From positions 9,509-73,508 of the forward strand of contig JAMWCD010000001.1 in assembly GCA_023818965.1 (NCBI GenBank): a stretch of 64,000 nucleotides of DNA. The letters run 5' to 3'. A program made the translations under genes and the position numbers. The stretch is from Candidatus Omnitrophota bacterium (GTDB lineage Bacteria > Ratteibacteria > UBA8468 > B48-G9 > DTJG01). Position 1 is the first letter of the stretch, and each line of letters opens with the position of its first letter. Of the stretch, positions 23,657 to 40,495 are shown piece after piece. Under the pieces are notes generated by a model. That model searched no databases. It had not been told where the DNA came from and saw only the letters and a list, made by a program, of their open reading frames with translations.

Positions 23657-23711
23657 GTAAAGGAAATAATTAGTTAAATTTGCAGAATCTATTTTGCTAT
23701 CAGGAGGGAAA

Positions 23712-24746: not shown

Positions 24747-25798
24747 TGAAAATACCAGAAAACATACTGAAAAAAATAAAAAAAGGAACTGTAATTCCTG
24801 CTCATCCTCTGGCACTGACAGAAAAAAGAACATTTGATGAAAAAAGGCAAAAAGCCCTGACACGATATTATCTTTCTGCAGGCGCAGGTGGGCTTGCTAT
24901 TGGAGTTCATACAACGCAATTTGAAATCCATGACAAAAAAATTGGGCTTTACAGACCTGTGCTTGAAATCGGAGCAGAAACCATTTCAGAGTATGAAGAA
25001 AAAAATCAACTGGAAACTCCGATTATAAGAATAGCAGGTGTCATCGGGAAAACTAAGCAGGCAATGAGTGAAGCAGAATTAGCCCACCAACTTGGATATC
25101 ATGCAGTTCTTTTAAGTTTATCTGCATTCAAGGGCTCAACCAATGATGAGATGTTATCACATGTCAGAAAAGTTTCTGAAATCATGCCTGTATTTGGTTT
25201 TTATTTACAGACCAGTGTTGGGGGCAGGGTTCTGAATTATGATTTCTGGAGAAAATTTGCTGAAATTGAAAATGTTGTTGCAATAAAAATAGCACCATTT
25301 AACAGGTATCAAACAATAGATGTTATAAGGGCTATTGCTGATAGTGGAAGAGACATTGCATTGTACACAGGAAATGATGATAATATTGTATCTGACCTTA
25401 TTACTCCATTTAATTTTTCAAACAGAAAATTGCGAATTGTTGGAGGATTGCTCGGTCACTGGGCTTTCTGGACATCAAAAGCAGTCGAACTATTGAACAG
25501 AATTCATTCAATTGTTGAGAATGAAAAATCAATTCCTGATTTTCTATTATCTCTTGGTGTGGAAATTACAGATGTCAATGCAGCAGTATTTGATGCGGCA
25601 AATAATTTTGCCGGTTGTATTCCAGGTATTCATGAAATTTTAAGAAGACAGGGATTATTGAAGGGTATATGGACATTAAATGAAAAAGAAACCCTCTCAC
25701 CAGGACAAAAAGAAGAAATTGATAGAGTTTGTAAACTTTATCCTCACTTGAATGATGATGAATTTGTTTCTGAACATCTTGACCAGTGGCTGAAATAA
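24746..25798 (+). CDS. Dihydrodipicolinate synthase (class I aldolase) family protein
   Basis: VIPAHPLAL, GVHTTQF, FGFYLQ, VAIKIAPF (Schiff-base Lys), YTGNDD. Confidence 0.8.
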   Translation: MKIPENILKKIKKGTVIPAHPLALTEKRTFDEKRQKALTRYYLSAGAGGLAIGVHTTQFEIHDKKIGLYRPVLEIGAETISEYEEKNQLETPIIRIAGVIGKTKQAMSEAELAHQLGYHAVLLSLSAFKGSTNDEMLSHVRKVSEIMPVFGFYLQTSVGGRVLNYDFWRKFAEIENVVAIKIAPFNRYQTIDVIRAIADSGRDIALYTGNDDNIVSDLITPFNFSNRKLRIVGGLLGHWAFWTSKAVELLNRIHSIVENEKSIPDFLLSLGVEITDVNAAVFDAANNFAGCIPGIHEILRRQGLLKGIWTLNEKETLSPGQKEEIDRVCKLYPHLNDDEFVSEHLDQWLK

Positions 25799-25820
25799 TC
25801 ATCAAAAGTTTTTCAAAAAA

Positions 25821-28355
25821 ATGGAAAATCTCCAGGGTTTAAGAGAGTCTGAGGTTCAAAATCTTCTAAAAAGATATGGTTATAATGAACTGCCTTCGCC
25901 TGACCGCAGAACAACTTTGAATATTCTGATAAGTATCTTTAAAGAACCAATGTTTTTACTTCTTGTTTCCTGCGGTGTGATTTATTTGATTGTTGGGAAT
26001 ATGACTGAGGCGCAGATGCTTCTTGGCTTTGTTTTTCTTGTTATGGGCATCACTTTTTACCAGGAAAGAAAGACAGAGAGAGCGCTTCAGTCATTGAAAA
26101 ATCTTTCAAGTCCCAGGGCACTTGTTATAAGAGATGGAATTGAGCGCAGGATTTCTGGAAGAGAGATCGTTCCTGGAGATATTGTCATTCTCAGTGAAGG
26201 AGATCGAGTGCCAGCAGATGGTTTGATTATTTCTTCCAGTAATCTTTATATTGATGAATCACTTATTACAGGGGAATCTGAGCCAGTGAGAAAAATTGCC
26301 TGTCAATCCAATTCAGAAATCTCCAGCGAAAAAGAAAATGTTTGTTTTGCTTATGCAGGCGGACTGGTGGTCAGGGGATACGGAGTTATGAGAGTGACAT
26401 CAACCGGTCAAAAAACTGTGATGGGTAAAATCGGAAAATCCTTGCAGAGTATTGAAACCGAAGAGACATTGATTCAAAAGGAAATTAAAAAACTTGTGAA
26501 GAGATTTTCAACAGTTGGCTTTTTCCTCTGTTTAATTGTTTTTCTTACATACCGGTTGTTTAATTACCACTGGATGGATGGAATTCTGGCAGGTTTAACA
26601 CTCGCAATGGCAATTCTTCCTGAAGAATTTCCTGTAGTTGTTACAATATTTTTTGCTCTTGGAGCATGGAGATTATCAAAACATCATGTTTTGACAAGAA
26701 GAATTCCTGCTATTGAAACACTGGGAGCAACCACTGTGTTATGTGTGGATAAAACAGGGACCCTTACAACAAATCGAATGGAAGTAAGAGGGCTTTATTC
26801 AGAGGGGAAACTTTTAGTTTTTGATCCTGATAAAATTTCAGAATTACCAGAAACATTTCACAGATTGATTGAATTCGGTGTCCTTGCCAGTATTGAAAGA
26901 CCTTTTGACCCGATGGAAAGAGCATTTCAGGATTTTGCAAAAAAATATCTCATTAATACTGAACATATTCATCACAACTGGATTCTTGTAAGAGAGTATC
27001 CTCTTTCAGAAAATCTATCAGCAATGTCAAATGTCTGGAAATCACCGGATGGAAATAAATTCATCATTTCAGTGAAGGGTTCGCCAGAGGCGATTTTCGA
27101 TTTGTGTCATTTTTCATCTGCTGAATACAGTCAGCTTGAAGAAGCAGCAAGAATGATGGCTGAACAGGGTTTCAGAGTACTGGGTGTGGCAGAAGCAGAA
27201 TTCAGCCAAAAAAATTCCCTTCCTGAAAAGCAGCATGATTTCAATTTTGTTTTTATTGGACTGATTGGATTGATGGACCCGCCAAGAGAAACAGCAACCG
27301 GGGCACTACAATCATGTAAGGATGCAGGGATCAGGGTTGTGATGATTACGGGTGATTATCCTGGTACTGCAAGGGCAATTGCAAAGAAAACAGGATTATT
27401 ATCATATGACAGAATTATTACAGGGCAAAATCTTGAACAGATGAGCAACGAGGAACTGGAAAAAAACTTAAAAAATGTTGATATTTTCGCCCGTATTATG
27501 CCTGAACAGAAACTGAGGATTGTGAATGCTTTTAAAAAAAATGGAGACATTGTCGCAATGACTGGAGATGGTGTTAATGATGCGCCTGCATTAAAATCAG
27601 CTCATATCGGTATTGCAATGGGAGAAAGAGGTACAGATGTTGCAAGGGAATCTGCGGATATAGTGCTTATGAATGATGATTTTTCATCCATTGTTGAGGC
27701 AATAAAAATTGGTAGAACCATTTACGATAATTTGAAGAAAGCCATGTCTTATATTATTTCAGTGCATATTCCTATCATCGGAATGTCTCTTTTTCCTGTG
27801 TTAATGGGGCTTCCGCTTGTGCTTGGACCGGTTCACATTGTTTTTCTTGAAATGGTGATAGACCCTGCATGTTCAACTGTTTTTGAGGCAGAACCACCAG
27901 AACCAGATCTTATGAAAAGGCCTCCAAGAAAACTGGATGAGCAGGTCCTTGATAGAAAAACATTTTTATTTGCTCTAATTCAGGGAATAGTGGTGTTATG
28001 TGTTGTTCTTGCTGTTTTTATGATATCTCTTGCAAGCGGCCATAGCGAAGGCAGGTCAAGAGCCATTACATTTACATCCTTAATTGTTGCAAACATTGGT
28101 CTTATATTTGTGAATCGCTCAATGTCAAGGTCTATTTTTTCAAAAACATTACTCAATAAACCACTCATTTTTGTCACTGCTGGTGCATTATTTTTTCTTT
28201 CAATCATCAATTTTAATCCATGGTTAAGGCAGATGTTCAAATTTGAAACAATTGATTTCCATGATACAGTGATGTGTGTTATTGCCGCAATCTGCAGTAC
28301 ATTGTGGTTTGAAGGAATTAAATATTTTATGAGGAAAAAACAGAAAGAGAAATAA
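25821..28355 (+). CDS. Cation-translocating P-type ATPase (type II-like)
   Basis: TGES, DKTGTLT, KGSPE, TGDY, MTGDGVNDAPAL; TM4 motif PEEFP. Confidence 0.95.
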   Translation: MENLQGLRESEVQNLLKRYGYNELPSPDRRTTLNILISIFKEPMFLLLVSCGVIYLIVGNMTEAQMLLGFVFLVMGITFYQERKTERALQSLKNLSSPRALVIRDGIERRISGREIVPGDIVILSEGDRVPADGLIISSSNLYIDESLITGESEPVRKIACQSNSEISSEKENVCFAYAGGLVVRGYGVMRVTSTGQKTVMGKIGKSLQSIETEETLIQKEIKKLVKRFSTVGFFLCLIVFLTYRLFNYHWMDGILAGLTLAMAILPEEFPVVVTIFFALGAWRLSKHHVLTRRIPAIETLGATTVLCVDKTGTLTTNRMEVRGLYSEGKLLVFDPDKISELPETFHRLIEFGVLASIERPFDPMERAFQDFAKKYLINTEHIHHNWILVREYPLSENLSAMSNVWKSPDGNKFIISVKGSPEAIFDLCHFSSAEYSQLEEAARMMAEQGFRVLGVAEAEFSQKNSLPEKQHDFNFVFIGLIGLMDPPRETATGALQSCKDAGIRVVMITGDYPGTARAIAKKTGLLSYDRIITGQNLEQMSNEELEKNLKNVDIFARIMPEQKLRIVNAFKKNGDIVAMTGDGVNDAPALKSAHIGIAMGERGTDVARESADIVLMNDDFSSIVEAIKIGRTIYDNLKKAMSYIISVHIPIIGMSLFPVLMGLPLVLGPVHIVFLEMVIDPACSTVFEAEPPEPDLMKRPPRKLDEQVLDRKTFLFALIQGIVVLCVVLAVFMISLASGHSEGRSRAITFTSLIVANIGLIFVNRSMSRSIFSKTLLNKPLIFVTAGALFFLSIINFNPWLRQMFKFETIDFHDTVMCVIAAICSTLWFEGIKYFMRKKQKEK

Positions 28356-28418: not shown

Positions 28419-28477
28419 TTGACAATTTTTGAAATAATATTACAATAATCGTAGAAAACATTTGAAATAAAATAACA
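28419..28477 (+). promoter_or_regulatory. Sigma70 promoter with two candidate RpiR operators
   Basis: TTGACA (28419), 16-nt spacer, TACAAT (28441); 15-bp sites TGAAATAATATTACA (28430-28444) and TGAAATAAAATAACA (28463-28477). Confidence 0.6.
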
Positions 28478-28488
28478 TAGGGGTTGAT

Positions 28489-29328
28489 GTGAATATCTAT
28501 GAGAAAATCAAAATTCTCGAGCCCTCATTTACGTCTTCGGAAAAAAAGGTTGCAGATTTTCTGTGTTTCAATAAAAAAGATACACCGTTTTTAACAATCT
28601 ACAATGTGGCAAAAAGTACAGGTGTTAGTACTGCAACTGTGACTCGTTTTGCAAAAAAAATGGGTTGCAGAAATTTTTCAGAATTGAAAATATTTTTTGC
28701 AAAACAATCATCAGGCTCACTCCACGAAATTTTTAGTGCAATAGAACCAAAAGATACTGATGAAGAGATAGTGAAAAAGGTTTTTCATGGGAATAAAAAG
28801 AGTCTGGAAGATACTCTGCACATTACAGACATATCAAAACTTACTACCCTTGCAAGAAAAATAGTTACTGCAAAACGGTTGATCTGCATAGGAATAGGAG
28901 GTTCAGGAAATGTAGCACAGGATGCAGCATTGAGATTTTCACATCTTGATTTACAGTCTGAGGCATATACTGACTATTATCATATTTTGATTCAGATGTT
29001 ACGGGCAGATGTAAATACTGTTGTAATTGGGATTTCGCATTCCGGGCGTTCCACAATTACTGTTGAGGGATTGAAAATGGCAAGGGAACAAAATGCTACC
29101 ACTGTGGGAATTTCAAATTACTATAATTCCCCTCTTGCCAGGGTTTCAGATTATTTCTTTTGTACATCTTTTCCTGAAACAGGTGTCAAGGTTGCTGCCC
29201 TATCGTCACGGATCGCCCAGTTGTGTTTGATCGATGCAATTTATCTTCTTGTTGCAAAGTATAAAAAGAAATTGTGGGATGTCAGTAAATTGAATGATCT
29301 TACAAATAAACTACTTCGCAAAAAATGA
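28489..29328 (+). CDS. MurR/RpiR family transcriptional regulator
   Basis: N-terminal HTH (VSTATVTRFAKKMG..FSELK) plus SIS domain (GIGGSG, ISHSGRS, SSRIAQL). GTG start. Confidence 0.93.
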   Translation: MNIYEKIKILEPSFTSSEKKVADFLCFNKKDTPFLTIYNVAKSTGVSTATVTRFAKKMGCRNFSELKIFFAKQSSGSLHEIFSAIEPKDTDEEIVKKVFHGNKKSLEDTLHITDISKLTTLARKIVTAKRLICIGIGGSGNVAQDAALRFSHLDLQSEAYTDYYHILIQMLRADVNTVVIGISHSGRSTITVEGLKMAREQNATTVGISNYYNSPLARVSDYFFCTSFPETGVKVAALSSRIAQLCLIDAIYLLVAKYKKKLWDVSKLNDLTNKLLRKK

Positions 29329-30797
29329 AAAAAGAAAAGAAATATCTTGCAATAGACATTGGTGCTTCTAATGGAAAAGCTGTTTGTGGTGTACTGAGAA
29401 ATGGGAAATTTGAACTTAATGAGGTATACAGATTTCCTAATGAGCCTGTTTACATCAATAATAGTTTGAGGTGGAATATCGTTTCATTGTGGAAAGAAGT
29501 GCAGAATTGCATTTCTGCATGCAGGGCTGAAGGATTTGACGATATATCAAGCATTGGTATTGACACATGGGGAGTTGATTTTGTTCTACTGGATAAAAAC
29601 AGACAAATATTACAGATTCCTTATCATTACAGGGATAATCTTACAAAAGGGGTTGAAAAGATAATTTCAAAAAAGATAAACGAGGAAAAACTTTATACAA
29701 TTACAGGATTGTTTATAAACAAGGTTACCAGTTTATCTCAAATGGTTAGTTTGAAAGAGAAATCAAAATGGATTCTTGATATCGCTGATGTATTTTTGAT
29801 GATGCCTGACTTTTTCAGATACTTACTTTCTGGTAACATCGGCTGTGAACTTACAGTCGCAAGCTCTTCTCAACTTCTTGATATTAGAGAGAAAAAATGG
29901 AGCGAAAAGGTTTTTGATACTTTTAACCTTCCTATAAGAATTATGCCAGAAATCATTCAACCCGGAACAATCTGTGGAAAGATGTACAAGCAGTTTTCTG
30001 ATGAATATTCTTTAAAGGACGTAAATATTGTAGCAACTGCTGGCCATGATACTGCGTCAGCAGCCGCCGCAGTGCCTTTTGTTTCTGAAGATACATTGTT
30101 TATAAGTTCAGGCACATGGATTGTTTTCGGACTGATCTCAAATTCTGTTAAAACGGATGAAGAAACTTATAAATCTGGATTTATTAACGAAGCAGGATTT
30201 AATTCTGTGTTAATTGTCAGAAATCTGGCAGGTCTTTATTTGTTTGAAAATTTTTACAGGCAGTTGCTCGAGAAGAATAAGAAACTTACATACAGGGATA
30301 TAATTTCTTCTGCTGCATCTACTAAGGGTTTTAAATTTTTTATCAACCCAAATGACAGTATTTTTTTCTTGACTGAAAATGTTGAATCAGCCGTTAGGGA
30401 ATACTGTTTGAAAACCGAACAGAAATATTCCGAAAATCCTGCTGATATATTTCGCACGATCCTTGAAGGGATTGCGATCAGTTTTATAAAGCCCAAAGAA
30501 GACCTTGAAAGATATATGAAAAAGGCATTCAACAAAATTTGTATGGTGGGAGGGGGTGTGAGAAATAACCTTTTGAGTCAGATGATTGCCGATGCAACAG
30601 GACTTGACGTTATTACAGGTCATGCTGAAGCAACATCGCTCGGTAATCTTTGTATCCAGGCTTTCGCGGATGGAGAAATCAAGGACATTTCAAAAATTAG
30701 AGATATTGCAGCAAACTCATGTAAAATGCGTGTTTTTCATCCAGGAAATACAGAAAAATGGCTTAAACATTTTGAAAAATTCAGAAATTTGTTATAA
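29325..30797 (+). CDS. FGGY carbohydrate kinase, rhamnulokinase/fuculokinase-like
   Basis: AIDIGASNG, GIDTWGVDF, HYRD, GHDTASA, ISSGTW, VGGG, EATSLGN. Confidence 0.9.
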   Translation: MKKEKKYLAIDIGASNGKAVCGVLRNGKFELNEVYRFPNEPVYINNSLRWNIVSLWKEVQNCISACRAEGFDDISSIGIDTWGVDFVLLDKNRQILQIPYHYRDNLTKGVEKIISKKINEEKLYTITGLFINKVTSLSQMVSLKEKSKWILDIADVFLMMPDFFRYLLSGNIGCELTVASSSQLLDIREKKWSEKVFDTFNLPIRIMPEIIQPGTICGKMYKQFSDEYSLKDVNIVATAGHDTASAAAAVPFVSEDTLFISSGTWIVFGLISNSVKTDEETYKSGFINEAGFNSVLIVRNLAGLYLFENFYRQLLEKNKKLTYRDIISSAASTKGFKFFINPNDSIFFLTENVESAVREYCLKTEQKYSENPADIFRTILEGIAISFIKPKEDLERYMKKAFNKICMVGGGVRNNLLSQMIADATGLDVITGHAEATSLGNLCIQAFADGEIKDISKIRDIAANSCKMRVFHPGNTEKWLKHFEKFRNLL

Positions 30798-30816
30798 CTT
30801 CAAAGGAGGAATTTTG

Positions 30817-32157
30817 ATGGAAAGATATCATTTGCCTGAGATTTTTCTAAATACGCTTGATGGAATTGATTTGAAGACGCATATAGTCGCAACATACTAT
30901 TTGAAGGATCGGCTTGAAGGGGTGGAATTTATTGACCATTTCGAACTTCTTCAAGCCATTGCGCTTGAGGGTTCGACAGGAACATGGGAAAAAGTTGAAG
31001 AGGATACTCTGCAGGTCAGACAAAAACTTTCAGGAAAACTTGTGGGTTACTATGAAATACCCACAGAAGATAAATATACCAGAGAAGCAGTGGTCCAGTT
31101 TGCTTTTCCAATATACGCATGGACAGACAACTTACCGATGATGTTACTTTCAATCGCAGGAAATTGTTTTGCCTATTCCCAGAATCTTAGACTTCTTGAT
31201 ATATTTTTACCATCGGAAATTCTTGATAAATTTTGTGGTCCGAAATTTGGTGTTGAAGGAATAAGAAAGATTACTGGTGTAGCTGAAAGACCGTTTTCAC
31301 TTCATATCATAAAGCCGAAAATGGGAATGACTCCGAAACAGGTTGCCAATCAGGTTTATCAGACAGCCCTTGGTGGAGTTGATATGGCAAAGGATGACGA
31401 AATGACATCCGATGTCTACAACAATACATACCTTGATAGGTTGGATGCTGTGCTTGAGAAACTCTATAAAGCAGAGAAGCAGACAGGAAAAAAGGTAATA
31501 TATTTTTTGAGTATTACGCACGAACCGGATAAAATTGTTGAACGGGCGCGCAAGGCTGTAAAAAACGGTGCAAATGGACTTCTGATAACATATTCAGCAG
31601 GATTGCCTGTTTTAAGGCAGATTGCTTCTGATCCGAAAATTAATGTACCGATTCTCTGGCATGCTTCGCATATGATAGCTGCGCAACCCAGAATTTCATG
31701 GCCTGTGTTTGCGAAACTTGCACGGGTCTGTGGTGCTGATTTGATGCTGACTCCAACGTACTGGTCATCGATACCGATGGTAAGTATGGAAGAAGGCCTT
31801 CGCACGGCTCATGTGAAACTTGCTCCACTTGGTAAGATCAAACAAACATTCCCAATGCCGTGTGCCGGGGTCTACCCGGGACTGGCGCCGGTTATTATAG
31901 GAGAATATGGAACTGACATCGTCATACCTGCTGGAGGTGGAATGCTTGGGCATCCTGACGGCTACACTGCTGGTGCGGCTGCATGGCAGCAAGCAATATC
32001 AGCGGTAATGGAAGGGGTCCATATTGTTGAATATGCAAAAAGGCCAGAAAATCGTGCTTTGAGAAGAGCAATCGAAAAATGGGGATACATTGAAAGACCA
32101 AAAACACCATGGTTGAGGGTTGCACCTCAATTTCATCCAAAAAGGATGGAAATATAA
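30817..32157 (+). CDS. RuBisCO-like protein (form IV)
   Basis: EGSTGTW, IAGN, GPKFG, IIKPKMG, KDDE, GGGMLGHPDG; loop-6 lysine absent. RBS AAGGAGG before ATG 30817. Confidence 0.92.
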   Translation: MERYHLPEIFLNTLDGIDLKTHIVATYYLKDRLEGVEFIDHFELLQAIALEGSTGTWEKVEEDTLQVRQKLSGKLVGYYEIPTEDKYTREAVVQFAFPIYAWTDNLPMMLLSIAGNCFAYSQNLRLLDIFLPSEILDKFCGPKFGVEGIRKITGVAERPFSLHIIKPKMGMTPKQVANQVYQTALGGVDMAKDDEMTSDVYNNTYLDRLDAVLEKLYKAEKQTGKKVIYFLSITHEPDKIVERARKAVKNGANGLLITYSAGLPVLRQIASDPKINVPILWHASHMIAAQPRISWPVFAKLARVCGADLMLTPTYWSSIPMVSMEEGLRTAHVKLAPLGKIKQTFPMPCAGVYPGLAPVIIGEYGTDIVIPAGGGMLGHPDGYTAGAAAWQQAISAVMEGVHIVEYAKRPENRALRRAIEKWGYIERPKTPWLRVAPQFHPKRMEI

Positions 32158-32188
32158 AAAATCCTTTACCATCACTAAAGGAGGAGCA

Positions 32189-33166
32189 ATGTATAAAAAT
32201 TATAAACTCGGTGCATGTCTACCAACTTTTGGTTCATGTGCTGATAGATTTTGTCTTTCTGGTTATGGAAAAGGTGGAAAAACAATGGAAGAAATGGTTG
32301 AACTCGCGAAAAAGGTCGAAGGTCTTGATGGACTTGAACTTGTTAGTAACTGGCATATAAATGACAGGAATATCAGATATGTTGAAAAACTTTTCAAGGA
32401 CAATGGTTTTGAAATATGTATGGTTGTACCTGATTTGTGGACACGTGCAGAATGGGGTAGTGGTAGTATAGCATCATCTGATAAAGAAACAAGAAAAAAG
32501 GCGATTGAAGAGATTAAAAAAAGTATTGATTGGGCAGCAGAGATTGGCTGTAAGTATGTTGATGTATGGCCTGGTCAGGATGGTTACGATTATCCGTTTC
32601 AAGCAGATTACCCTGAAGCATGGAAAAGAATGAGGGAAGCCATTGCGGAATGTGCCAGTTATAATAAAAATGTGAAAGTTCTTGTTGAATACAAGATGAA
32701 AGAACCAAGAACTCACTGTTTTATCAGCAATGCTGGAAAGGCTGTGTTGCTGATTCAGGGAATAGAGAATACAGGATGTCTTCTTGACGTGGGACACAGT
32801 CTTGCAGCAGGAGAGAATATGGCAGAGGCAGTTTGTCTTCTTTCCCAAAACGGAGTGCTATCATACATTCATCTGAATGATAATTACGGGTTATGGGATG
32901 ATGATCTCCTTGTTTCATCTGTCCATATTGTTGAATATCTTGAATTCATTTACTGGTTAAAAGAATCTGGATATAATGGATGGTTAACACTTGATATTTT
33001 TCCTTATAGAGAAGAAAAGGTTTCTGCAGCAAGAAATTCTTTTGAATGGATAAGGTTCTTGTTTGAGAAGATTGAGAAAACAGGTATGTCAGAAATTAGA
33101 AATGTTATTGAAAAAGCAGATGGAAACGAAGTTTCATCTCTTGTTAGAAAGATTTTATCGTGTTAA
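32189..33166 (+). CDS. Xylose-isomerase-like TIM-barrel sugar isomerase
   Basis: WPGQDGYDYPFQ, EYKMKEPR, LDVGH, HLNDNY..WDDDL, LDIFP metal-ligand motifs. RBS AAGGAGGAG. Confidence 0.85.
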   Translation: MYKNYKLGACLPTFGSCADRFCLSGYGKGGKTMEEMVELAKKVEGLDGLELVSNWHINDRNIRYVEKLFKDNGFEICMVVPDLWTRAEWGSGSIASSDKETRKKAIEEIKKSIDWAAEIGCKYVDVWPGQDGYDYPFQADYPEAWKRMREAIAECASYNKNVKVLVEYKMKEPRTHCFISNAGKAVLLIQGIENTGCLLDVGHSLAAGENMAEAVCLLSQNGVLSYIHLNDNYGLWDDDLLVSSVHIVEYLEFIYWLKESGYNGWLTLDIFPYREEKVSAARNSFEWIRFLFEKIEKTGMSEIRNVIEKADGNEVSSLVRKILSC

Positions 33167-33195
33167 TAATTTTTTGATTTTACAGAGGTGTTCTC

Positions 33196-34287
33196 ATGGC
33201 GATTCAAATCAAAGTTCCTGACGTCGGAACAACAGTTGAAGAGGTAACCCTTATTAAGTGGAGAAAAAATCAGGGAGATTTTATTAAGAAAGGAGAGATT
33301 ATTGCTGAAATTGAAACCGACAAGGCAGTTGTAGAACTTGAGTCAATTGCCGAAGGAAAAATTTTGAAAATTCTTTGTAAAGAAGGGGATGTGATTAAAA
33401 AGGGTGAAACTATTGCCTATGTTGGCGACGAGGGTGAAGTAATTGAAATTCCAGAAAAAATTCAACCCAAAATTTCACCAGCCCTGAAAGCGCTTGCTGA
33501 TAAACTTGGTGTGGATTTATCAAAGGTTAAGGGCTCCGGTCCTGATGGTACTATCACAAGAAAGGATATTTTAGAGGCCAGGGGAAAGTTAGCAGACAAA
33601 CAAGGAATGATGGAAGAGACAGTCATTATGCCTGATTACCAGAAATCAGTGATGAAAACAGTTATTGCAAGCCATAGAGAAATTCCTCCAGTACATTTTA
33701 CTTCTTTCATTGACATGGAAAAGGTGCTTGAATTTCGAGAAAAAATATTAAGACAGGAGAAAATAAAGATTATATTTGATGCATTTTTTATTTTTGCGTG
33801 TAGCAGAGCGATAAAAGTTTTTCCTGAAATGCAGCATTACATTCTTGAAGGGACATTAAGGAAGAGAGACCAAATTTCTATTGCTTTTGCTGTATCTTCT
33901 GACAGAAAACTTTATCTTCCTGTTATAAGAGATTGTGATCGCAAGTCCATAATGGAAATCGCATTACAGACAAATGACATTATAAACAGGATTAATGAAG
34001 GAAAGCTTCTGGGAGATGACGTAACCAGTGGTTGCTTTCTTGTTAGCAATCTCGGGATGTATCCTGTTGAATTTTTTGATGCGATGATTTACCCTGGACA
34101 TTCAGGTGCGCTTGCGATTGGTTCAATATCAAAAAAGCCTGTTGTGATTGGCGATAGTATTGTAATAAAGAATATTTGTAATATCACGCTTTCATGTGAC
34201 CACAGGATAATCAATGGTTCCGTTGCTGTAAGTTTCCTGAAAAATGTCAAAGATATTATTGAAAACGGACTTTTTATGGAGGAGTGA
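33196..34287 (+). CDS. Dihydrolipoamide acyltransferase (E2)
   Basis: Lipoyl domain ETDKA, subunit-binding domain GSGPDGTITRKD, catalytic SNLG and DHRIING. Confidence 0.93.
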   Translation: MAIQIKVPDVGTTVEEVTLIKWRKNQGDFIKKGEIIAEIETDKAVVELESIAEGKILKILCKEGDVIKKGETIAYVGDEGEVIEIPEKIQPKISPALKALADKLGVDLSKVKGSGPDGTITRKDILEARGKLADKQGMMEETVIMPDYQKSVMKTVIASHREIPPVHFTSFIDMEKVLEFREKILRQEKIKIIFDAFFIFACSRAIKVFPEMQHYILEGTLRKRDQISIAFAVSSDRKLYLPVIRDCDRKSIMEIALQTNDIINRINEGKLLGDDVTSGCFLVSNLGMYPVEFFDAMIYPGHSGALAIGSISKKPVVIGDSIVIKNICNITLSCDHRIINGSVAVSFLKNVKDIIENGLFMEE

Positions 34288-35253
34288 ATGAAAGAAAATT
34301 ACTATAGTACGGAACAGTTGCTTATGTTTTACAGAAAAATGGTTTTGATCAGAGAATTCGAAGAACGTGTAAAATTTTTGTTTCTGGAAGGTACCATGCC
34401 AGGAACAATACATCAGTATCAGGGGCAGGAAGCGTGCGCAGTTGGTGTTTGTTCTGCCTTGAAAAAAGGAGATATTATTACAACTACTCACAGGCCTCAC
34501 GGACATTGTATTGCAATGGGTATGGACATTAAATCAATGATGGCTGAATTATTTGGTAAGGTGACTGGTTGTTGCAGGGGGAAAGGTGGTTCTATGCACA
34601 TGGGAGACATTGAGAAAGGTGTTGTGCCTGGCATTGCTATAGTTGGAGGAGGGATTCCCATCGCCACAGGCATAGGATTTGGTTTCAAAATGAAAAATAT
34701 GCCGAATGTTGCTGTTTGCTTTATGGGTGATGGTGCAACAAATGAAGGCACCTTTCATGAATCTTTAAATATGGCTTCTGTCTGGAATTTACCGGTTATT
34801 TATGTTGTTGAAAATAACCTCTATGGTGCGTCAACTCATGTTTCTCTTGTAATGAAGGTTGAAAAAATTTCAGAAAGAGCATCTGCCTATAGAATTCCGG
34901 GGATTACAATTGATGGAAACGATGTTATCAAAGTTTATGAAACCGCCATGGAAGCAGTTGAGAAGGCTCGTTCGGGAGGTGGTCCCACGCTTATTGAACT
35001 TTTGACCTACAGGATTACAGGCCATTCAAGAAGAGACCCTGCAGCATACCAGCCTCCTGAGGAAAAGAAAAAAGCTCTTGAGAATGAACCAATAAAAAAA
35101 TTTACTTCTTTTCTCCTTTCAAGAGGTGTCAGCAAGGAAATAATTGAAAGCATCAGAGAAGAAGTAAAAATTGAAATTGAAGAGGCGGTAAAATATGCGA
35201 TGGAATCTGAATATCCATTACCAGAAGATACCCTCAATGATTTATTTGCTTGA
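34288..35253 (+). CDS. ThDP-dependent dehydrogenase E1 alpha (PDH/acetoin dehydrogenase-like)
   Basis: GQEA, THRPHGH, GKGGSMH, GDGATNEG..ENNLY, YRITGHS. Confidence 0.93.
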   Translation: MKENYYSTEQLLMFYRKMVLIREFEERVKFLFLEGTMPGTIHQYQGQEACAVGVCSALKKGDIITTTHRPHGHCIAMGMDIKSMMAELFGKVTGCCRGKGGSMHMGDIEKGVVPGIAIVGGGIPIATGIGFGFKMKNMPNVAVCFMGDGATNEGTFHESLNMASVWNLPVIYVVENNLYGASTHVSLVMKVEKISERASAYRIPGITIDGNDVIKVYETAMEAVEKARSGGGPTLIELLTYRITGHSRRDPAAYQPPEEKKKALENEPIKKFTSFLLSRGVSKEIIESIREEVKIEIEEAVKYAMESEYPLPEDTLNDLFA

Positions 35254-35264
35254 AAAGGAGAAAA

Positions 35265-36287
35265 ATGGCAAGATTAACAATTGCTGAAGCACTGAGGGAA
35301 GCAATAAGGGAAGAAATGAGAAGAGACGAAAATGTTTATTGCATCGGAGAAGACATCGGTATTCCTGGTGGCTGGGGAGGTGCATTTACTGTGACACTCG
35401 GTCTTGAAAAAGAATTTCCTGATAGAATTATCAATACACCCATCTCAGAAGCAGGATTTTTTGGGGTTGCCCTTGGTTCTTCATTGATTGGATTAAGACC
35501 GATTATTGATGTTCAATATGGAGATTTTCTTTTCTGCGCCATGGACCAGATTGCAAATCAAATAGCAAAATTGAGATATATGTCCGGAGGAAAAGTCAAG
35601 ATACCCATTGTGATTAGAGCACCTGTGGGAGTGACGGGTCGTGGAGCTCAACACTCCCAGATGATGGAACCATTTTTTCATTGTCTGCCAGGTATTAAGA
35701 TTGTGGTTCCAGCAACAGCATATGATGCAAAAGGTCTTCTGAAGACTGCTGTAAGGGATGATAACCCAGTATTAATTTTCGAACATAAACTGCTTTATGG
35801 CGCAAAGGGAGTTAGAAGTGAATCAGGTTCAATCGATGCCTCAAGCGAAATACCTGAGGAAGAATATACAATTCCATTTGGAAAAGCAGTAGTAAGAAAA
35901 CAGGGTAAAGACATAACCATAATTGCAACACTTTTGATGATGTACAGGGCATATGAAGCAGCACAAATACTGGAAGAACAAGGAATATCTGTGGAGGTTA
36001 TAGATCCCAGGTCTCTTGTTCCCTTTGACTGGGAAACAGTAAAAAAGTCAATTGCAAAAACAGGCCGTGTTGTTATAGTTGAAGAGAGCCCTCGCCGTGG
36101 CGGGATAGGTGCTGAAATCGCAGCAACAATTGCTGAAGAGATGCTCGATTTTCTTATTGCCCCAGTAAGAAGAATTGCTGCACCTGATACGCCTGCTCCA
36201 TTTTCACCTGTTATGGAAAAGTTCTATGTTCCAAGCACTGAAAGAATTGTGCAGACAGTAAAGGAAATTATTAATATCAGTTCTTAA
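35265..36287 (+). CDS. ThDP-dependent dehydrogenase E1 beta
   Basis: GEDIG, NTPISE, AQHSQ, FEHKLLY, VIDPRSLVP. RBS AAGGAG before ATG 35265. Confidence 0.93.
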   Translation: MARLTIAEALREAIREEMRRDENVYCIGEDIGIPGGWGGAFTVTLGLEKEFPDRIINTPISEAGFFGVALGSSLIGLRPIIDVQYGDFLFCAMDQIANQIAKLRYMSGGKVKIPIVIRAPVGVTGRGAQHSQMMEPFFHCLPGIKIVVPATAYDAKGLLKTAVRDDNPVLIFEHKLLYGAKGVRSESGSIDASSEIPEEEYTIPFGKAVVRKQGKDITIIATLLMMYRAYEAAQILEEQGISVEVIDPRSLVPFDWETVKKSIAKTGRVVIVEESPRRGGIGAEIAATIAEEMLDFLIAPVRRIAAPDTPAPFSPVMEKFYVPSTERIVQTVKEIINISS

Positions 36288-37633
36288 ATTAATCCTTCCT
36301 GGGATATGATGATATCCTGGACCTGTTTAACAGGTACTGCATTTACATCACACCTGTTTTTGAGTGCGACTGCTGCCATTACACCTGCGGCATGTCCGGT
36401 TGCCATACAGGTTGCCATTACCCTGATTGCTCCCATTGCCTTATGGTCAGCAGAAATACATCTACCTGCAACAAGTAAATTTTTTGATTGCTCAGGGATT
36501 AAACACCTTGCAGCGATACTGAACCAGTCATTTTCTGGTGGATGAAGTTTGCTTTTTGAAGGAAGATAGTCCTTATATCTGTCAAGCATGAAACAATACT
36601 GGGTTGTTTCGCATTCCTTACAGCACAAATGAGTATTTATTGTTCTTCCAAGTGGGCAGTGTATATCAATCCAGTATGTGCAACGTGCAATACTATCATC
36701 TGCCTTTTTCCCTTCAATAACATCCTGTTCATTGAGAGTGTACAGTCCTTTAATCTGTCTTGTTTCCCTTATCCCTGCATTGATATGAAATGATGAAATA
36801 TAGGAATTTTCAAATCCCTTCACATTGTTTTTGAAAAATTCATAGATTTTGAATGCTTCCTTTCTTAATTCAATTTCAGCCTGTGTAAGTTCAATGGCAT
36901 TTGTTGCATCTCCGGCAAATCTTGTCATATTAAAACTTCTTTCGCCTTTTCTTATGGTGCTTCCCTTTCCGCCAGGACCTTCATTGTATATTTTCAGTTC
37001 TCCATTCTGTCTCAATTGTTTCAGTTTTTCTCTTGCTTCCCTTACGATATCTTCTGTTAATTTTTCTTCATCAATGCCTGCGATTTTAAAAACACTTCCC
37101 ATGGATTCTGTTTTTCCATCCTGTGGCCTCCCTTTTGTGCATTCAAAACCTCCAAAGTATGCGATATCAGCATCACCAGTTCCATCAATGAAAATTTCTC
37201 CTTCTATTTCCATTTTTCCATTCTTATTAACAACTTCAATTGATTTAACTTTTCCATTTTCAGAGTTTACTGCTGAAAGGCAGGAATGATACAAAAATTT
37301 TACTCCTGCATCAAGAAGAACCTGTTCTGCTGCAATTTTAAGTAATTCTGAATCAAAAGGGATTCCGTATTTTTTGAATGCTTTTTCCCATGGTTCACAG
37401 CCACCAATTTTATGTAAATGTTCAATAAGTACTTTCAAAAATCCTGCGACTGCTGGTTGGTTTTCATTAAGATAATGTCCGAGAATTGGACCAACAATTC
37501 CTGTTGTTGCCATCCCGCCGCAAAAACCGTATCTTTCAACAAGTAGTGTTTCTGCTCCTGTTTTTGCTGATGCCCATGCAGCAGCCATTCCTGCTGGTCC
37601 TGCTCCGACTACAACGACTTTTGATTTCATCAT
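36284..37633 (-). CDS. FAD-dependent oxidoreductase
   Basis: VVVGAGPAG, IDGTGDAD, GIRETRQI, LLVAGRCIS, RVMATCMATGHAAG. Confidence 0.9.
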   Translation of the reverse strand: MMKSKVVVVGAGPAGMAAAWASAKTGAETLLVERYGFCGGMATTGIVGPILGHYLNENQPAVAGFLKVLIEHLHKIGGCEPWEKAFKKYGIPFDSELLKIAAEQVLLDAGVKFLYHSCLSAVNSENGKVKSIEVVNKNGKMEIEGEIFIDGTGDADIAYFGGFECTKGRPQDGKTESMGSVFKIAGIDEEKLTEDIVREAREKLKQLRQNGELKIYNEGPGGKGSTIRKGERSFNMTRFAGDATNAIELTQAEIELRKEAFKIYEFFKNNVKGFENSYISSFHINAGIRETRQIKGLYTLNEQDVIEGKKADDSIARCTYWIDIHCPLGRTINTHLCCKECETTQYCFMLDRYKDYLPSKSKLHPPENDWFSIAARCLIPEQSKNLLVAGRCISADHKAMGAIRVMATCMATGHAAGVMAAVALKNRCDVNAVPVKQVQDIIISQEGLI

Positions 37634-37876
37634 CCCCCCTGGTATAATAATCACTATTATGGACTATGCAGATTAAAACATAGATTTTTTAATTTTGCAA
37701 TTGTTAACCTCCCATAAGAATAGAAAATAGGAGATGGATTGAGGTGATTTTCTTTGACAATGATTTTAACTTCACCCCATCATGACAATTTTTTTCTGTT
37801 GGGACTGTAATCAGATTTACCTGACGCGTGATTTGATGTATAATTTTAAAGGAATCAAGATAACAGGGAGGTAAAA

Positions 37877-40495
37877 ATGAAATTCAAATTGTCATTGGCT
37901 TTAATAGTTCTCTATCAATGTATAAGTTTTGCAACTGTTAGCATTAGCGGTGAAATATTTGATATACAAACTAATTCAGGTGTGAGTGGTGCAACCATAT
38001 CAATAGTTGGCACAAATCTTTCAACACAAACATCATCAGATGGGAGTTTTACAATTTCAAATGTGTCTGTTTTTTCAACAGGATTTCAAATTAAGGCAAG
38101 TAAATCAGGATATGTGAATACCTACAGCCAGCTTGGAAATGTAGGAGCAGTTGATGAAACAGATATTTCTTTCCCTGTTTTTTCTAACACAATGTACAGT
38201 AATCTGCATAGTACTGCTTTTGGTGGTGTCGCTCATACATCAGGAAAAGGTGATATCGTTGGTATGGTTAATAGTGGAAACAAAGTAGGTGTTAGTGGTG
38301 TTGTAATTACTGCAAGATATATTGATAACAATCAGGTGGCAGGAACAATAAGATATGTAAACGAAAGTATGATGCCTGACCCAAGTTTAACAAGCACTTC
38401 ATCATCTGGTGCTTTTATCGTATATAATGTTGACCCTTATAAACCAGTAAAAATCATCGGGACAAAATCTGGAAGTAATTTTTCTTCATGTGTTGTAATA
38501 TGTTATCCTGACAGTGTCACTGTTGGCGGCATTGAAGGAATTAGTTTATTACCGCAACTGACAGGTACTGTTACATGGGATGATAATCCAGTTAGTGGAG
38601 CAACAGTTTCAATCCCAGGGACAACATTTTCAGCAACCACAGGTAATGATGGTTCATTTAGCATAAGTTTCCATCCTACCCCTTATGGAGTCATTAAGGT
38701 TTCAAAGCAGAATTATGTGGATACATATGTCAGTGGCAGGGCTGACGAAGGAAACAATAAAAATGGTAATGTTGGTGAACTATTTATTATTCCTCAGGCG
38801 GTTTACAATGATATGCTTGCTTCACTTGGAAAAAGTCACATACCAGGGAAGGGTGATATTTATGGTTCATTAAAAACAGCAAATGACTTTCCTGTTGCTG
38901 GTGCAAAAATAAATCTTTATGATAAAAATGGGACAAAATTAAATCCTGACATTTTTTATTTTGATGAACAAGGAAATCCTGAAACATCATTAAAGGAAAC
39001 CACTTCAGAGAGCCAGTTTTTAATAATCAATCTTGATCCAGGATATTACTTTATTTCAGCAGAGAAAAATGGTTTTGAATTTGGAAGGAATCTTGCAATT
39101 GTCTTTGCAAATGGTATTGCAGGTGCACCTGATATTATTTCATATCCACCAATGCCCGGGATTGAAAAACAAAAATTTGAAGATATCCCGTCAGCAAATA
39201 TTTCTGCAGGTGCTCAAAATGTTGCAATGCTTTCTTTTATCCTGAATTTGATGAAATGGGAAACAGATGAAAACGTAGTTTTTGATAGTGTGATTGTAAC
39301 AGCAAAAGGAACCGGAAACATTTCAACAGCACTTTCAAGCGCAAAACTCTATGTTGATGCAGACAATAACGGAACTTATGAAACCCTCGTTTCAACAGGA
39401 ACAATATCAGGTAATAAAATAATCTTTTCAAACATCAACAGGGAAATGGACTATGGTGTGAATCAAAAATATCTTGTTGTTTTTAATTTCAATGGAACTG
39501 CATCAGTAGGTCAAACATTTGGGGTAGACATATTGAAAAATTCAGATGTTTCATCCCATGCAAAAAATTCCTTGCTTCCAGTAACCTGTGAAGGAGAGCC
39601 GATTGAAGGTAATTTGATGACAATAGTTCCAGCATACCCACCAGCAAAACCAATGGTATATGCACCACCTTATGGAACAAATCCACTTGCTTATGCGATT
39701 CAATCAAGTCCATTTGATCCTGGCCAGGGGAATACAACCCATAAAGCATCACAGTGGAGAATATGGAAGGAAGGAGAAAGTTATGAAACATTAACCTGGG
39801 ATAGTGGAGAGGATACTGTGCATCTTACTTACATATATACACCTGTTCCTCTTGAAGGTTATACGATATATTATTGCCAGGTAAGGTATGAAAATGGCGA
39901 TAATGTATGGAGCGAGTGGTCAAATGCAGCGTCCTTTAGGACAGGAGCAGATGGAATAACACCACCACAGGCGCCAACAAATCAATCACCTTCTAATGGA
40001 GCGACTGATGTTAAAATTCCTGTTACACTACAAGCAAGTTCTTTTGTGCCAGGCAGTTCAAATACTCATATTGCTTCTCAATGGAGAATTTATAAATTAT
40101 TTGATTCAAAACAGTATGAAATTGTTTTTGACACTAAAAGAGATACAACCAATCTTACATCAATCACAGTGTCTTCACTGCTGCCTTCAACACAATACTA
40201 CTGGACTGTAAGATATCAGGATGGAAATGGTGCCTGGAGCAATTGGAGTGAACCTACAACTTTCACAACCTTACAGGGTATTAAAGGTAATTTGAATGGA
40301 GACAGTGAAATTGATATTTCTGATGTGATTCTGTGTCTCAGGATGGCAATAGGACTACCTGTGACAATTTCAGCCCAGACATATAATTCACCATATCCTG
40401 ATTGGCTTATTTACCTTGCTGATATGAATAATGACGGTGTTGTAGATATTTCAGATGTAATTTTGATTCTGAGAAGAGCCATTGGTCTGGACTGA
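37877..40495 (+). CDS. Secreted modular protein: duplicated carboxypeptidase-regulatory-like modules, FN3-like pair, C-terminal dockerin
   Basis: Signal peptide; repeated VSGAT(I/V)SI.GT and GKGDI.G; two SQWRI..YY..VRY..WS.WS modules; paired EF-hand loops GNLNGDSEIDISD and ADMNNDGVVDISD. Confidence 0.75.
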   Translation: MKFKLSLALIVLYQCISFATVSISGEIFDIQTNSGVSGATISIVGTNLSTQTSSDGSFTISNVSVFSTGFQIKASKSGYVNTYSQLGNVGAVDETDISFPVFSNTMYSNLHSTAFGGVAHTSGKGDIVGMVNSGNKVGVSGVVITARYIDNNQVAGTIRYVNESMMPDPSLTSTSSSGAFIVYNVDPYKPVKIIGTKSGSNFSSCVVICYPDSVTVGGIEGISLLPQLTGTVTWDDNPVSGATVSIPGTTFSATTGNDGSFSISFHPTPYGVIKVSKQNYVDTYVSGRADEGNNKNGNVGELFIIPQAVYNDMLASLGKSHIPGKGDIYGSLKTANDFPVAGAKINLYDKNGTKLNPDIFYFDEQGNPETSLKETTSESQFLIINLDPGYYFISAEKNGFEFGRNLAIVFANGIAGAPDIISYPPMPGIEKQKFEDIPSANISAGAQNVAMLSFILNLMKWETDENVVFDSVIVTAKGTGNISTALSSAKLYVDADNNGTYETLVSTGTISGNKIIFSNINREMDYGVNQKYLVVFNFNGTASVGQTFGVDILKNSDVSSHAKNSLLPVTCEGEPIEGNLMTIVPAYPPAKPMVYAPPYGTNPLAYAIQSSPFDPGQGNTTHKASQWRIWKEGESYETLTWDSGEDTVHLTYIYTPVPLEGYTIYYCQVRYENGDNVWSEWSNAASFRTGADGITPPQAPTNQSPSNGATDVKIPVTLQASSFVPGSSNTHIASQWRIYKLFDSKQYEIVFDTKRDTTNLTSITVSSLLPSTQYYWTVRYQDGNGAWSNWSEPTTFTTLQGIKGNLNGDSEIDISDVILCLRMAIGLPVTISAQTYNSPYPDWLIYLADMNNDGVVDISDVILILRRAIGLD

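Follow-up and report, generated by a model that had tools for sequence, protein, structure and literature searches.

What is made, or broken down, by an operon in which a RuBisCO-like protein (RLP) stands among the genes of a sugar pathway, together with those of a thiamine diphosphate (ThDP)/lipoate dehydrogenase complex? The operon is carried by contig JAMWCD010000001.1 of the Candidatus Omnitrophota assembly GCA_023818965.1. The stretch analysed (positions 9,509 to 73,508 of the forward strand, 64,000 nucleotides) is referred to as the window. The genes encode, in this order, an RpiR-type regulator, a rhamnulokinase-like kinase, a form IV RLP, a xylose-isomerase-like enzyme and the E2, E1-alpha and E1-beta proteins of the complex. 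Open reading frames (ORFs), Pfam and NCBIfam agree on this tightly coupled arrangement, as described in an earlier note made from the DNA letters, and on the absence of an aldolase, a transporter and an E3 (dihydrolipoyl dehydrogenase) among the seven genes. The data point to an undescribed route in which a sugar phosphate is split into acyl-CoA and triose phosphate. The reading preferred here is held tentatively, at somewhat less than an even chance: the operon would be an RpiR-controlled, horizontally mobile module for the breakdown or salvage of a terminally modified pentose.

The search for related loci (designated L and a number) gave 72 loci, all from metagenome-assembled or uncultured genomes. 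Loci were counted as in-clade when the RLP was at least 58% identical over at least 60% coverage (n = 58); a linked E1 is a subunit at least 50% identical to that of the window. Among the 58 loci, an E1 is linked in 39, E1-beta in 35, an E2-like protein in 29, the isomerase (at least 50% identity) in 32, a kinase in 26 and RpiR in 40. When only the 23 loci with at least 8 kilobases (kb) on both sides are considered, E1, isomerase and RpiR are each present in 18 and a kinase in 14. The five long-flank loci lacking E1 (L008, L012, L014, L048, L051) come from genomes that, without exception, encode an E1-beta of 61-68% identity at some other site; in one of them it is part of an isomerase-E2-E1-alpha-E1-beta block on another contig. 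In several loci, E1 directly follows the RLP with no gene between.

Both partners are rare. Among 201 background genomes of Planctomycetota, the RLP was found in one (the centre genome itself) and the RLP-linked E1-beta, called type 1, in two (that genome and G070); this reverse test (E1 without RLP) covers a sample from one phylum. In a locus search made with E1-beta, type 1 was found in one of 80 loci (L102, 65% identity, E1-alpha adjacent), with no RLP within the 10.7-kb contig of that locus. That two genes of such rarity are neighbours in most loci, over more than ten phyla, places a functional coupling of the RLP with the type 1 E1 beyond reasonable doubt. The earlier note had proposed that a lack of co-conservation would speak against its idea; the RLP and E1 proved co-conserved in 39/58 loci and 18/23 long-flank loci, the other five having the E1 unlinked in the genome. 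The seven-gene context, whose conservation it had suggested checking, recurs across more than ten phyla, variably complete. Chance would fall far short of explaining the arrangement, given the recurrence of this set of genes around the RLP in many phyla. We infer that the RLP product would be the substrate of the E1.

The RLP belongs to a large and coherent clade. The protein search gave 932 RLP relatives among 8000 candidates scored, and the 120 matches listed are all 67-91% identical to the query. The clade contains at least 120 clusters at 90% identity, is internally 58-91% identical and is spread over more than ten phyla (Spirochaetota, Planctomycetota, Bacteroidota, Acidobacteriota, Omnitrophota, Armatimonadota, Verrucomicrobiota, Nitrospirota and others). 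The window protein has the two domains of the RuBisCO superfamily, both over the Pfam cut-off (PF00016, 134 bits; PF02788, 46 bits). It lies under the cut-off of every curated RLP or RuBisCO model of NCBIfam, whether for bona fide RuBisCO of forms I to III (TIGR03326, 221 versus 497; PRK04208, 212 versus 438; PRK13475, 102 versus 489), for MtnW (NF007095, also PRK09549, 271 bits versus 409; TIGR03332, 220 versus 514) or for OiaX (NF042437, 142 bits versus 700).

The RLP tree has 28 rows: the window protein, 17 of the 58 in-clade loci, five distant loci and five named references (MtnW, OiaX, form I and two other plasmid RLPs; the Rhodospirillum rubrum-type isomerase RLP is not included). The clade is monophyletic (100/99), and its stem is long, at 1.37 changes per site. 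MtnW comes out as its sister (97/96, subject to a long-branch warning); OiaX and form I are separate from it, the named OiaX being located in a different part of the tree. By the cut-offs and among the references of this tree, the RLP falls in no characterised clade that would explain the operon, an outcome that the earlier note had named as one that would refute its proposal. A more distant relative (46% identity) is found in a Spirochaetota metagenome-assembled genome (L064:10001-14392), with RpiR upstream and E2 and E1-alpha downstream. It was kept out of the tree (six stops in the matched frame); it represents either a sister clade in which the partnership also exists or a copy in decay.

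Active-site columns were read from a HMMER alignment to the Thermococcus kodakarensis RuBisCO (3A13) and three MtnW-type structures. The clade alignment (n = 46) includes the window protein and 45 locus ORFs of at least 420 amino acids, out of 63 members of the RLP cluster. Equivalents of E60, T65, W66, N123, K175, K177, K201, D203, E204, G381, G403 and G404 are retained in the window protein. Those of E60, W66, N123, K175, K177, K201, D203 and E204 are invariant in the 46 members, as is G381 (46/46); G403 and G404 are each conserved in 45/46. The changes are Leu at H327, a gap at K334, Cys at S379 and Ile or Val at R295, and loop 6 reads LTPTxWSSIP across the clade. In MtnW structures 2OEK, 2ZVI and 4NAS, the N123 column is Lys, the catalytic base of MtnW, versus Asn in the window protein and in the whole clade (46/46); the K177 column is Met in MtnW and Lys here. 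Both columns are of importance to catalysis by MtnW.

The KPK and KDDE motifs reported in the earlier note are present, and the loop-6 lysine is missing as it had said, the K334 column being a gap and the R295 column not Arg. The residue that it took for the His294 equivalent is aligned with H298, the H294 column being occupied by Pro; a two-residue gap adjacent to it makes this placement ambiguous. H327, K334 and R295 are needed for carboxylation in RuBisCO, where K334 stabilises the carboxyl group; these carboxylation-essential residues are replaced, as in form IV proteins. By structure-function work on RuBisCO, the pattern would mean that the site for metal and carbamate, the residues for enolisation and the P1 phosphate site are kept, and that the carboxylation lysine has disappeared along with the second phosphate site. 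It fits a ketose monophosphate as the probable substrate of enolisation. Fixation of CO2 by the RLP is rejected: K334, H327 and R295 are gone, and no phosphoribulokinase context is found in the window.

The E1 linked to the RLP is a class of its own. In a tree of 34 of the 36 E1-beta cluster members and the paralogue of the window genome, the 32 RLP-linked E1-beta form one clade (100/99), which excludes that paralogue (47.5%) and the second copies of L016 and L018. Identity is 59-87% within the clade and at most about 52% to other E1-beta; plasmid-borne relatives do not exceed 48.8%. The paralogue belongs to a second E1-alpha-E1-beta-E2 set (43, 48 and 32% identical to the operon proteins), located on contig 2 at about 258500-263950, after mannitol-dehydrogenase-like and zinc alcohol dehydrogenase genes. 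The second E1 copies of L016 and L018, with which this contig 2 E1-beta groups, precede a phosphatase of the haloacid dehalogenase (HAD) family.

The general features of 2-oxoacid and acetoin dehydrogenases are all found. E1-alpha has the GDG...NN ThDP motif and the GHS motif when aligned to its top solved relative, human pyruvate dehydrogenase (PDH) E1-alpha, and scores 369 bits with TIGR03182 (cut-off 394, not reached). The translated E2 has the lipoyl-lysine motif ETDKA and the catalytic His motif DHR, and is under all equivalog cut-offs (top model, 229 bits versus 445). An E3 gene (442 bits, cut-off 409) adjoins a lipoyl synthase gene (lipA) on contig 4; the lack of E3 in the operon, listed in the earlier note, is therefore no peculiarity. 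A full E2 is encoded in most loci. Elsewhere, a stand-alone lipoyl protein of 84-92 residues lies between RLP and E1-alpha (L037, L040, L043), or the lipoyl domain and E1-alpha share one open frame of 464-499 amino acids (L007, L019, L028), or E1 is found alone with no lipoyl domain (L009, L013, L025, L032, L050, L054, L059; an Omnitrophota/Armatimonadota group). No acyltransferase domain is found near the genes in the stand-alone, fused or lipoyl-less loci. The stand-alone lipoyl genes are located at L037:11398-11655, at L040:11374-11628 and near 9047 in L043. Of the proposed E1/E2 partnership, the link of E1 to the RLP stands, and that of E2 holds in part, its catalytic domain not being universal in the cluster. 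The constant partner of the RLP is E1-alpha/beta, usually plus a lipoyl acceptor.

The kinase and isomerase give the type of sugar only broadly. For the kinase, rhamnulokinase models score highest (TIGR02627, 363 bits, cut-off 528; NF007925, 324, cut-off 639); it is nearest to the rhamnulokinase subfamily and is not RhaB by equivalog cut-off. Its best PDB matches are the L-fuculokinase of Streptococcus pneumoniae (4C23, 291 bits), the rhamnulokinase of Escherichia coli (224) and a xylulokinase (52); identity to E. coli LsrK is only 22%. It thus belongs to the subfamily that phosphorylates C1 of 6-deoxy-ketoses, without being an orthologue by cut-off. In NCBIfam, the isomerase reaches 93 bits with Arthrobacter-type XylA and 84 bits with Gram-positive RhaI, both weak matches, and its top PDB match is the uncharacterised 3KTC (188 bits).

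The chain length of the substrate is suggested by companion genes. Clustering of neighbours revealed a trio: an orthologue of the LsrF thiolase (NF006081, 504 bits, cut-off 297), an epimerase resembling ribulose-phosphate 3-epimerase (RPE; 210 bits versus a cut-off of 212.6) and a short-chain dehydrogenase/reductase (SDR) corresponding to the C-terminal half of bifunctional rhamnulose-1-phosphate aldolase/dehydrogenases (402 bits). In Planctomycetota, Armatimonadota and unclassified loci, the trio lies next to rpiR in divergent orientation. Bacteroidales L026 has it in one co-directional string with the RLP, E2 and E1 genes, and in L020 the E2 gene is co-transcribed with it on the divergent arm. 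In the window genome, it is a separate three-gene unit on contig 4 (125179-127618; L186:8180-10622), whose proteins are 69, 50 and 74% identical to those of other phyla. The unit is flanked by V-type ATPase genes and by pilin-like and glycoside hydrolase (GH) GH2/GH20-like genes.

The LsrF proteins of the window genome and of L040 are 60% identical over their full length (284-291 residues) to E. coli K-12 LsrF, and K203, the Schiff-base lysine of LsrF, is aligned with Lys. Above the cut-off, the LsrF family is found in 22 of 50 RLP genomes (plus the window genome) and in 29 of the 201 Planctomycetota of the background; at 482 bits or more, the figures are 19/50 and 1/201. With its single-phylum background, the comparison is rough. 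In a control, NF006081 matched none of 14 well-known genomes (E up to 1e-60), although E. coli K-12 has lsrF; the control was not relied on. The E. coli K-12 enzyme is annotated as 3-hydroxy-2,4-pentadione-5-phosphate thiolase; its products are dihydroxyacetone phosphate (DHAP) and acetyl-CoA. Its substrate is 1-deoxy-xylulose-5-phosphate oxidised at C4, which is the same compound as 5-deoxy-ribulose-1-phosphate oxidised at C4. By analogy, the orthologue points to C5 methyl-ketone phosphate chemistry, and it lends the 5-deoxypentulose example of the earlier note some indirect support. A C5 methyl-terminated substrate is favoured mainly because an LsrF orthologue, whose substrate is a C5 methyl diketone phosphate, accompanies the cluster.

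From these elements a pathway can be proposed. The xylose-isomerase-like enzyme would convert an aldose into a ketose, which the fuculo/rhamnulokinase-like kinase would phosphorylate to a ketose 1-phosphate. The RLP would enolise this compound and shift its carbonyl, giving a 1-deoxy-ketose 5-phosphate, i.e. a substituted acetoin. The dedicated E1-alpha/beta would split this acyloin, releasing glyceraldehyde-3-phosphate and oxidatively loading the C2 unit on the lipoyl domain. E2 would then transfer this unit to CoA, forming acetyl-CoA; E3 and lipoyl synthase, whose genes lie elsewhere, would recycle and make the cofactor. In a companion branch (about 40% of genomes), the SDR, LsrF and RPE-like enzymes would oxidise the substrate to 3-hydroxy-2,4-pentanedione-5-phosphate and thiolyse it to DHAP and acetyl-CoA; this branch may serve the other C3 epimer or run in parallel. 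The mechanism put forward in the earlier note is plausible, and nothing found argues against it. Its statement that RLP and ThDP/lipoate complex replace the aldolase was too strong, since the genome encodes, at other sites, an LsrF-type enzyme and two members of the class II aldolase family. A more specific version is possible and rather doubtful: the RLP would turn 5-deoxy- (or 5-substituted) pentulose-1-phosphate into compounds of the 1-deoxy-xylulose-5-phosphate (DXP) type, which the E1 would split into acetyl-CoA and glyceraldehyde-3-phosphate. [quoted passage not shown] It would touch DXP, the isoprenoid and thiamine precursor, and be widespread in uncultured anaerobes.

Several observations weigh against the pentose module. 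The LsrF family occurs in 29 of the 201 background genomes without RLP, and one background genome (G070) has a type 1 E1-beta at a contig end and no detected RLP. The E1 subunits look PDH-type, E1-beta exceeding a PDH subfamily cut-off (NF006667, 341 bits versus 321). The E2 catalytic domain is missing in 12 of the 39 E1-bearing loci, some of which have a stand-alone or E1-fused lipoyl domain. The E1/E2 and SDR/LsrF branches would be redundant if both act on the same compound. No gene of the purine nucleoside phosphorylase, methylthioadenosine (MTA) or 5'-deoxyadenosine nucleosidase families is found in any of the 72 loci, and the GH140-like, rhamnosidase-like and transport genes suggest an exogenous glycan sugar rather than a SAM by-product. 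The identity of the substrate, the RLP reaction and the order of the steps are inferred from sequence.

The same architecture could act on a 6-deoxyhexose (L-fucose or L-rhamnose). The RLP would then shift the carbonyl from C2 to C4 and the E1 would give glyceraldehyde-3-phosphate and a lactyl unit, recovered as lactyl-CoA; if so, free lactaldehyde would be avoided. The top solved relatives of the kinase (L-fuculokinase and rhamnulokinase), the weak RhaI matches of the isomerase, the relation of the companion SDR to rhamnulose-1-phosphate aldolase/dehydrogenase (C-terminal half, 402 bits) and a weak rhamnosidase-like hydrolase in two Planctomycetota loci go in this direction, and many of the host phyla are generally known as polysaccharide degraders. 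Kinase and isomerase are, however, below the rhamnose-pathway cut-offs. The LsrF orthologue is 60% identical to an enzyme whose substrate is a C5 methyl diketone phosphate, and MtnW, the nearest characterised reference in the tree, acts on a C5 substrate; a hexose is therefore considered unlikely. It is about as improbable that E1/E2 is an ordinary pyruvate- or acetoin-type complex, merely co-regulated and oxidising a small end product, with the RLP product handled by other enzymes (e.g. an aldolase or LsrF elsewhere). Such enzymes exist in the genome (class II aldolase-family genes and the LsrF orthologue), the catalytic motifs are standard, human PDH E1-alpha is the top solved relative, and one PDH cut-off is passed (E1-beta, 341 versus 321) and another nearly so (E1-alpha, 369 versus 394). 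Against this, the genome already has a second full E1-alpha-E1-beta-E2 set, and the E1 linked to the RLP forms a clade apart, accompanies the RLP from phylum to phylum, matches it in rarity in the background sample and directly follows it in several loci.

Two further alternatives concern the RLP itself. It could be a decarboxylase ('reverse RuBisCO') acting on a branched carboxy-sugar phosphate, such as a keto acid derived from aceric acid or apiose (compare OiaX), E1/E2 and LsrF then disposing of the deoxy-ketose phosphate. More of the carboxylation site is kept than in MtnW (N123 and K177 versus K and M), GH140 apiosidase-like genes are found in or beside the cluster, and genes resembling uroporphyrinogen decarboxylase (URO-D), of a decarboxylase/methyltransferase fold, flank the isomerase in 25 sources. 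The GH140 link is nevertheless confined to four loci, the OiaX model gives 142 bits versus 700 and its reference lies elsewhere in the tree, the four-carbon acid sugar kinase that goes with OiaX is not among the recurrent neighbour clusters, and the equivalent of K334, which stabilises the carboxyl group in RuBisCO, is absent. This reading is very unlikely. That the RLP is MtnW, the 2,3-diketo-5-methylthiopentyl-1-phosphate (DK-MTP-1-P) enolase of methionine salvage, is hardly credible. MtnW models and structures are indeed the best-scoring named relatives (PRK09549, 271 bits; PDB 2OEK, 206 bits) and the JGI annotation labels many clade members MtnW, but the scores are far below the cut-offs (271 versus 409, 220 versus 514), identity to the named MtnW is 32%, and the column of the MtnW catalytic-base lysine is Asn in 46/46 members. 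MtnX and an aminotransferase, which flank a true mtnW gene, are not among the recurrent neighbours of the clade.

The seven genes of the operon (Table 1) are co-directional on the + strand, with intergenic gaps of -4 to 31 bases, and their family assignments are all upheld by Pfam and NCBIfam; the rpiR product is under all NCBIfam equivalog cut-offs. The promoter-like site TTGACA-16-TACAAT is the top-scoring one of the region, its -35 hexamer lying at the start position given in the earlier note (28419), and terminator-like sites are not enriched there (seven found versus 6.6 expected from shuffles). Metagenomes of 14 studies (hot springs, sludge, sediment, biogas) contain the operon DNA nearly unchanged, one of these studies being marked as a possible source of the DNA itself; matches are at the DNA level, and it was found in no RNA run.

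Table 1. Features of the operon and of its surroundings. Positions are those of the window; functions are predicted from sequence models.
Feature	Position	Strand	Evidence or remark
Epimerase-like gene, dihydrodipicolinate synthase (DHDPS)-like gene (class I aldolase fold, weak, 27 bits), P-type cation ATPase	23694-28355	+	Directly 5' of rpiR
Promoter-like site TTGACA-16-TACAAT, 5' of rpiR	28419-28446	+	11/12 consensus positions; consensus match only
RpiR/MurR-family regulator (rpiR)	28489-29328	+	Pfam HTH_6, 60 bits; SIS, 69 bits
FGGY sugar kinase, rhamnulokinase/L-fuculokinase subfamily	29325-30797	+	4-base overlap with rpiR
Form IV RLP, 446 amino acids	30817-32157	+	19-base gap after kinase; both RuBisCO large-chain Pfam domains
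Xylose-isomerase-like TIM-barrel enzyme, putative aldose-ketose isomerase	32189-33166	+	PF01261, 104 bits
E2 dihydrolipoyl acyltransferase (lipoyl, E3-binding and catalytic domains)	33196-34287	+	Pfam Biotin_lipoyl, E3_binding, 2-oxoacid_dh
E1-alpha, ThDP-dependent dehydrogenase subunit	34288-35253	+	PF00676, 290 bits
E1-beta, RLP-linked type 1 clade	35250-36287	+	Transket_pyr, Transketolase_C; 4-base overlap with E1-alpha
Flavin adenine dinucleotide (FAD)-dependent oxidoreductase, convergent	36284-37654	-	PF12831, 358 bits; overlaps the E1-beta end by 4 bases
872-amino-acid protein, two CarboxypepD_reg and a Rha78A-like Ig domain	37877-40495	+	Kept 3' of the operon in close relatives

The genes around the operon are shared with few loci. 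The neighbour cluster of the FAD oxidoreductase includes the window, L001, L003 and L072 and was not found in other phyla; those of the epimerase-like, DHDPS-like and P-type ATPase proteins each include the window, L001, L002, L003 and L046. The 872-amino-acid protein may be a secreted glycan-binding or glycan-degrading protein. Other neighbours recur in parts of the clade. URO-D-like proteins (PF01208; weak MtaA/CmuA match, 38 bits) are often encoded right after the isomerase (25 sources); the window operon has no such gene, and relatives 31-36% identical are encoded elsewhere in its genome. Examples are L009:15919-17019, L040:18697-21004 and L033:14830-17836; the gene is sometimes located after E1-beta, present in two copies or about 614 codons long. 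A HAD phosphatase resembling beta-phosphoglucomutase follows E1-beta in five loci. The GH140 apiosidase-like genes (PF13204, 240 bits) of L013, L015, L026 and L062 lie inside the cluster or at its end, in L013 between E1-alpha and E1-beta (L013:3339-4973). A class III aminotransferase and two amidohydrolases are found in three loci, and class II aldolase-family genes in only 4 of 72. Two Planctomycetota loci have the weak match to a rhamnosidase-like hydrolase. In Spirochaetota, a cluster of ABC-type ATPases, read by eye from the sequence, lies beside the RLP cluster and is accompanied by a weakly RbsB-like binding protein (42 bits versus 337). ORF clusters c7, c9 and c20, antisense artefacts in high-GC loci, were excluded.

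To our knowledge, most RLP clades have no known function. Those solved so far have each brought new enolate chemistry to light, and with it a new pathway (methionine salvage, the MTA-isoprenoid shunt, apiose catabolism). ThDP/lipoate E1 enzymes are, as far as we know, known for 2-oxo acids and acetoin and not for sugar phosphates. A direct coupling of RLP and E1, if true, would mean a new RLP reaction and a new class of E1 substrates; a ketose phosphate would be broken without an aldolase, the C2 unit being saved as a thioester equivalent to one ATP. Were 5-deoxyribose the substrate, a gap would also be filled in the disposal of 5'-deoxyadenosine by anaerobes rich in radical-SAM enzymes.

The literature search gave no description of this gene combination, which the earlier note did not recall as characterised: no paper was found on an RLP with E1/E2 or with LsrF, an earlier appearance in a similarity-network figure being possible. 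RuBisCO-like protein was not found paired with rhamnulokinase, acetoin dehydrogenase or LsrF. Among the matches listed, none of the RuBisCO-like protein papers since 2021 describes an RLP-E1/E2 cluster, and LsrF was not found together with 5-deoxyribose or 5-deoxyribulose. The available parts of PMC13454268, PMC6302742, PMC6079011 and PMC6389311 mention no RLP with E1/E2. The clade, although large, conserved and present in more than ten phyla, has escaped study because it is found only in uncultured organisms. The RLP-E1 question is directly testable, since all the components are soluble, expressible enzymes.

Five known systems can be compared with the operon. By hidden Markov models, PDB matches and tree, no named protein is nearer to the window RLP than MtnW/YkrW, a form IV RLP known from Bacillus and Geobacillus. 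The two share the fold, the metal site of carbamylated Lys, Asp and Glu and the glycine-rich phosphate site, and the window RLP is predicted to act, as MtnW/YkrW does, on a monophosphorylated C5-type substrate. They differ by an identity of about 32%, long branches, K/M versus N/K at the N123 and K177 columns, and other gene neighbours. The reaction type proposed for the window RLP, a carbonyl shift, is that of the R. rubrum RLP, which reportedly (Erb and colleagues, in 2012) acts in the MTA-isoprenoid shunt as a 5-methylthioribulose-1-phosphate 1,3-isomerase. We know of no other RLP that moves a carbonyl along a ketose-1-phosphate, giving a 1-substituted xylulose-5-phosphate. The partner of the R. 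rubrum RLP is said to be a cupin methylsulfurylase and not an E1/lipoyl system.

The second half of the operon resembles the acetoin (AcoABC-L) and pyruvate dehydrogenase complexes, with a heterotetramer-type E1, a ThDP motif, a lipoyl E2 and a shared E3. Acetoin dehydrogenase oxidatively cleaves a methyl acyloin into acetyl-CoA and an aldehyde; this is the chemistry proposed for the E1 of the operon, with a sugar phosphate as proposed substrate. Unlike those complexes, the operon E1 forms its own clade, is encoded within a sugar kinase/isomerase operon and has an E2 whose catalytic domain is sometimes replaced. The Lsr system for autoinducer-2 (LsrK, LsrG, LsrF) shares with the RLP cluster LsrF and an RPE-like protein, an FGGY kinase and, as proposed for the cluster, a carbonyl shift and the products acetyl-CoA and triose phosphate; the system is accompanied by LsrE in Salmonella. 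It differs by its regulator (LsrR in E. coli versus RpiR) and by its kinase (LsrK versus a 22%-identical kinase), and has neither RLP nor E1/lipoyl system. LsrG was not seen among the recurrent neighbours of the RLP clade, no search having been aimed at it.

The last of the five is the 5-deoxyribose disposal pathway or DHAP shunt (DrdK-DrdI-DrdA). According to the available parts of its description (Beaudoin et al. 2018, PMC6079011), the sugar is phosphorylated and then isomerised, and a class II aldolase gives DHAP and acetaldehyde; an isomerase and a kinase of the 6-deoxyhexose type are named there as a possible alternative entry. Both the shunt and the operon are proposed to dispose of a 5-deoxy-pentose via 5-deoxyribulose-1-phosphate. 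The operon would differ from it in that the isomerase acts first, no aldolase is encoded among its genes and the end products are acetyl-CoA and triose phosphate.

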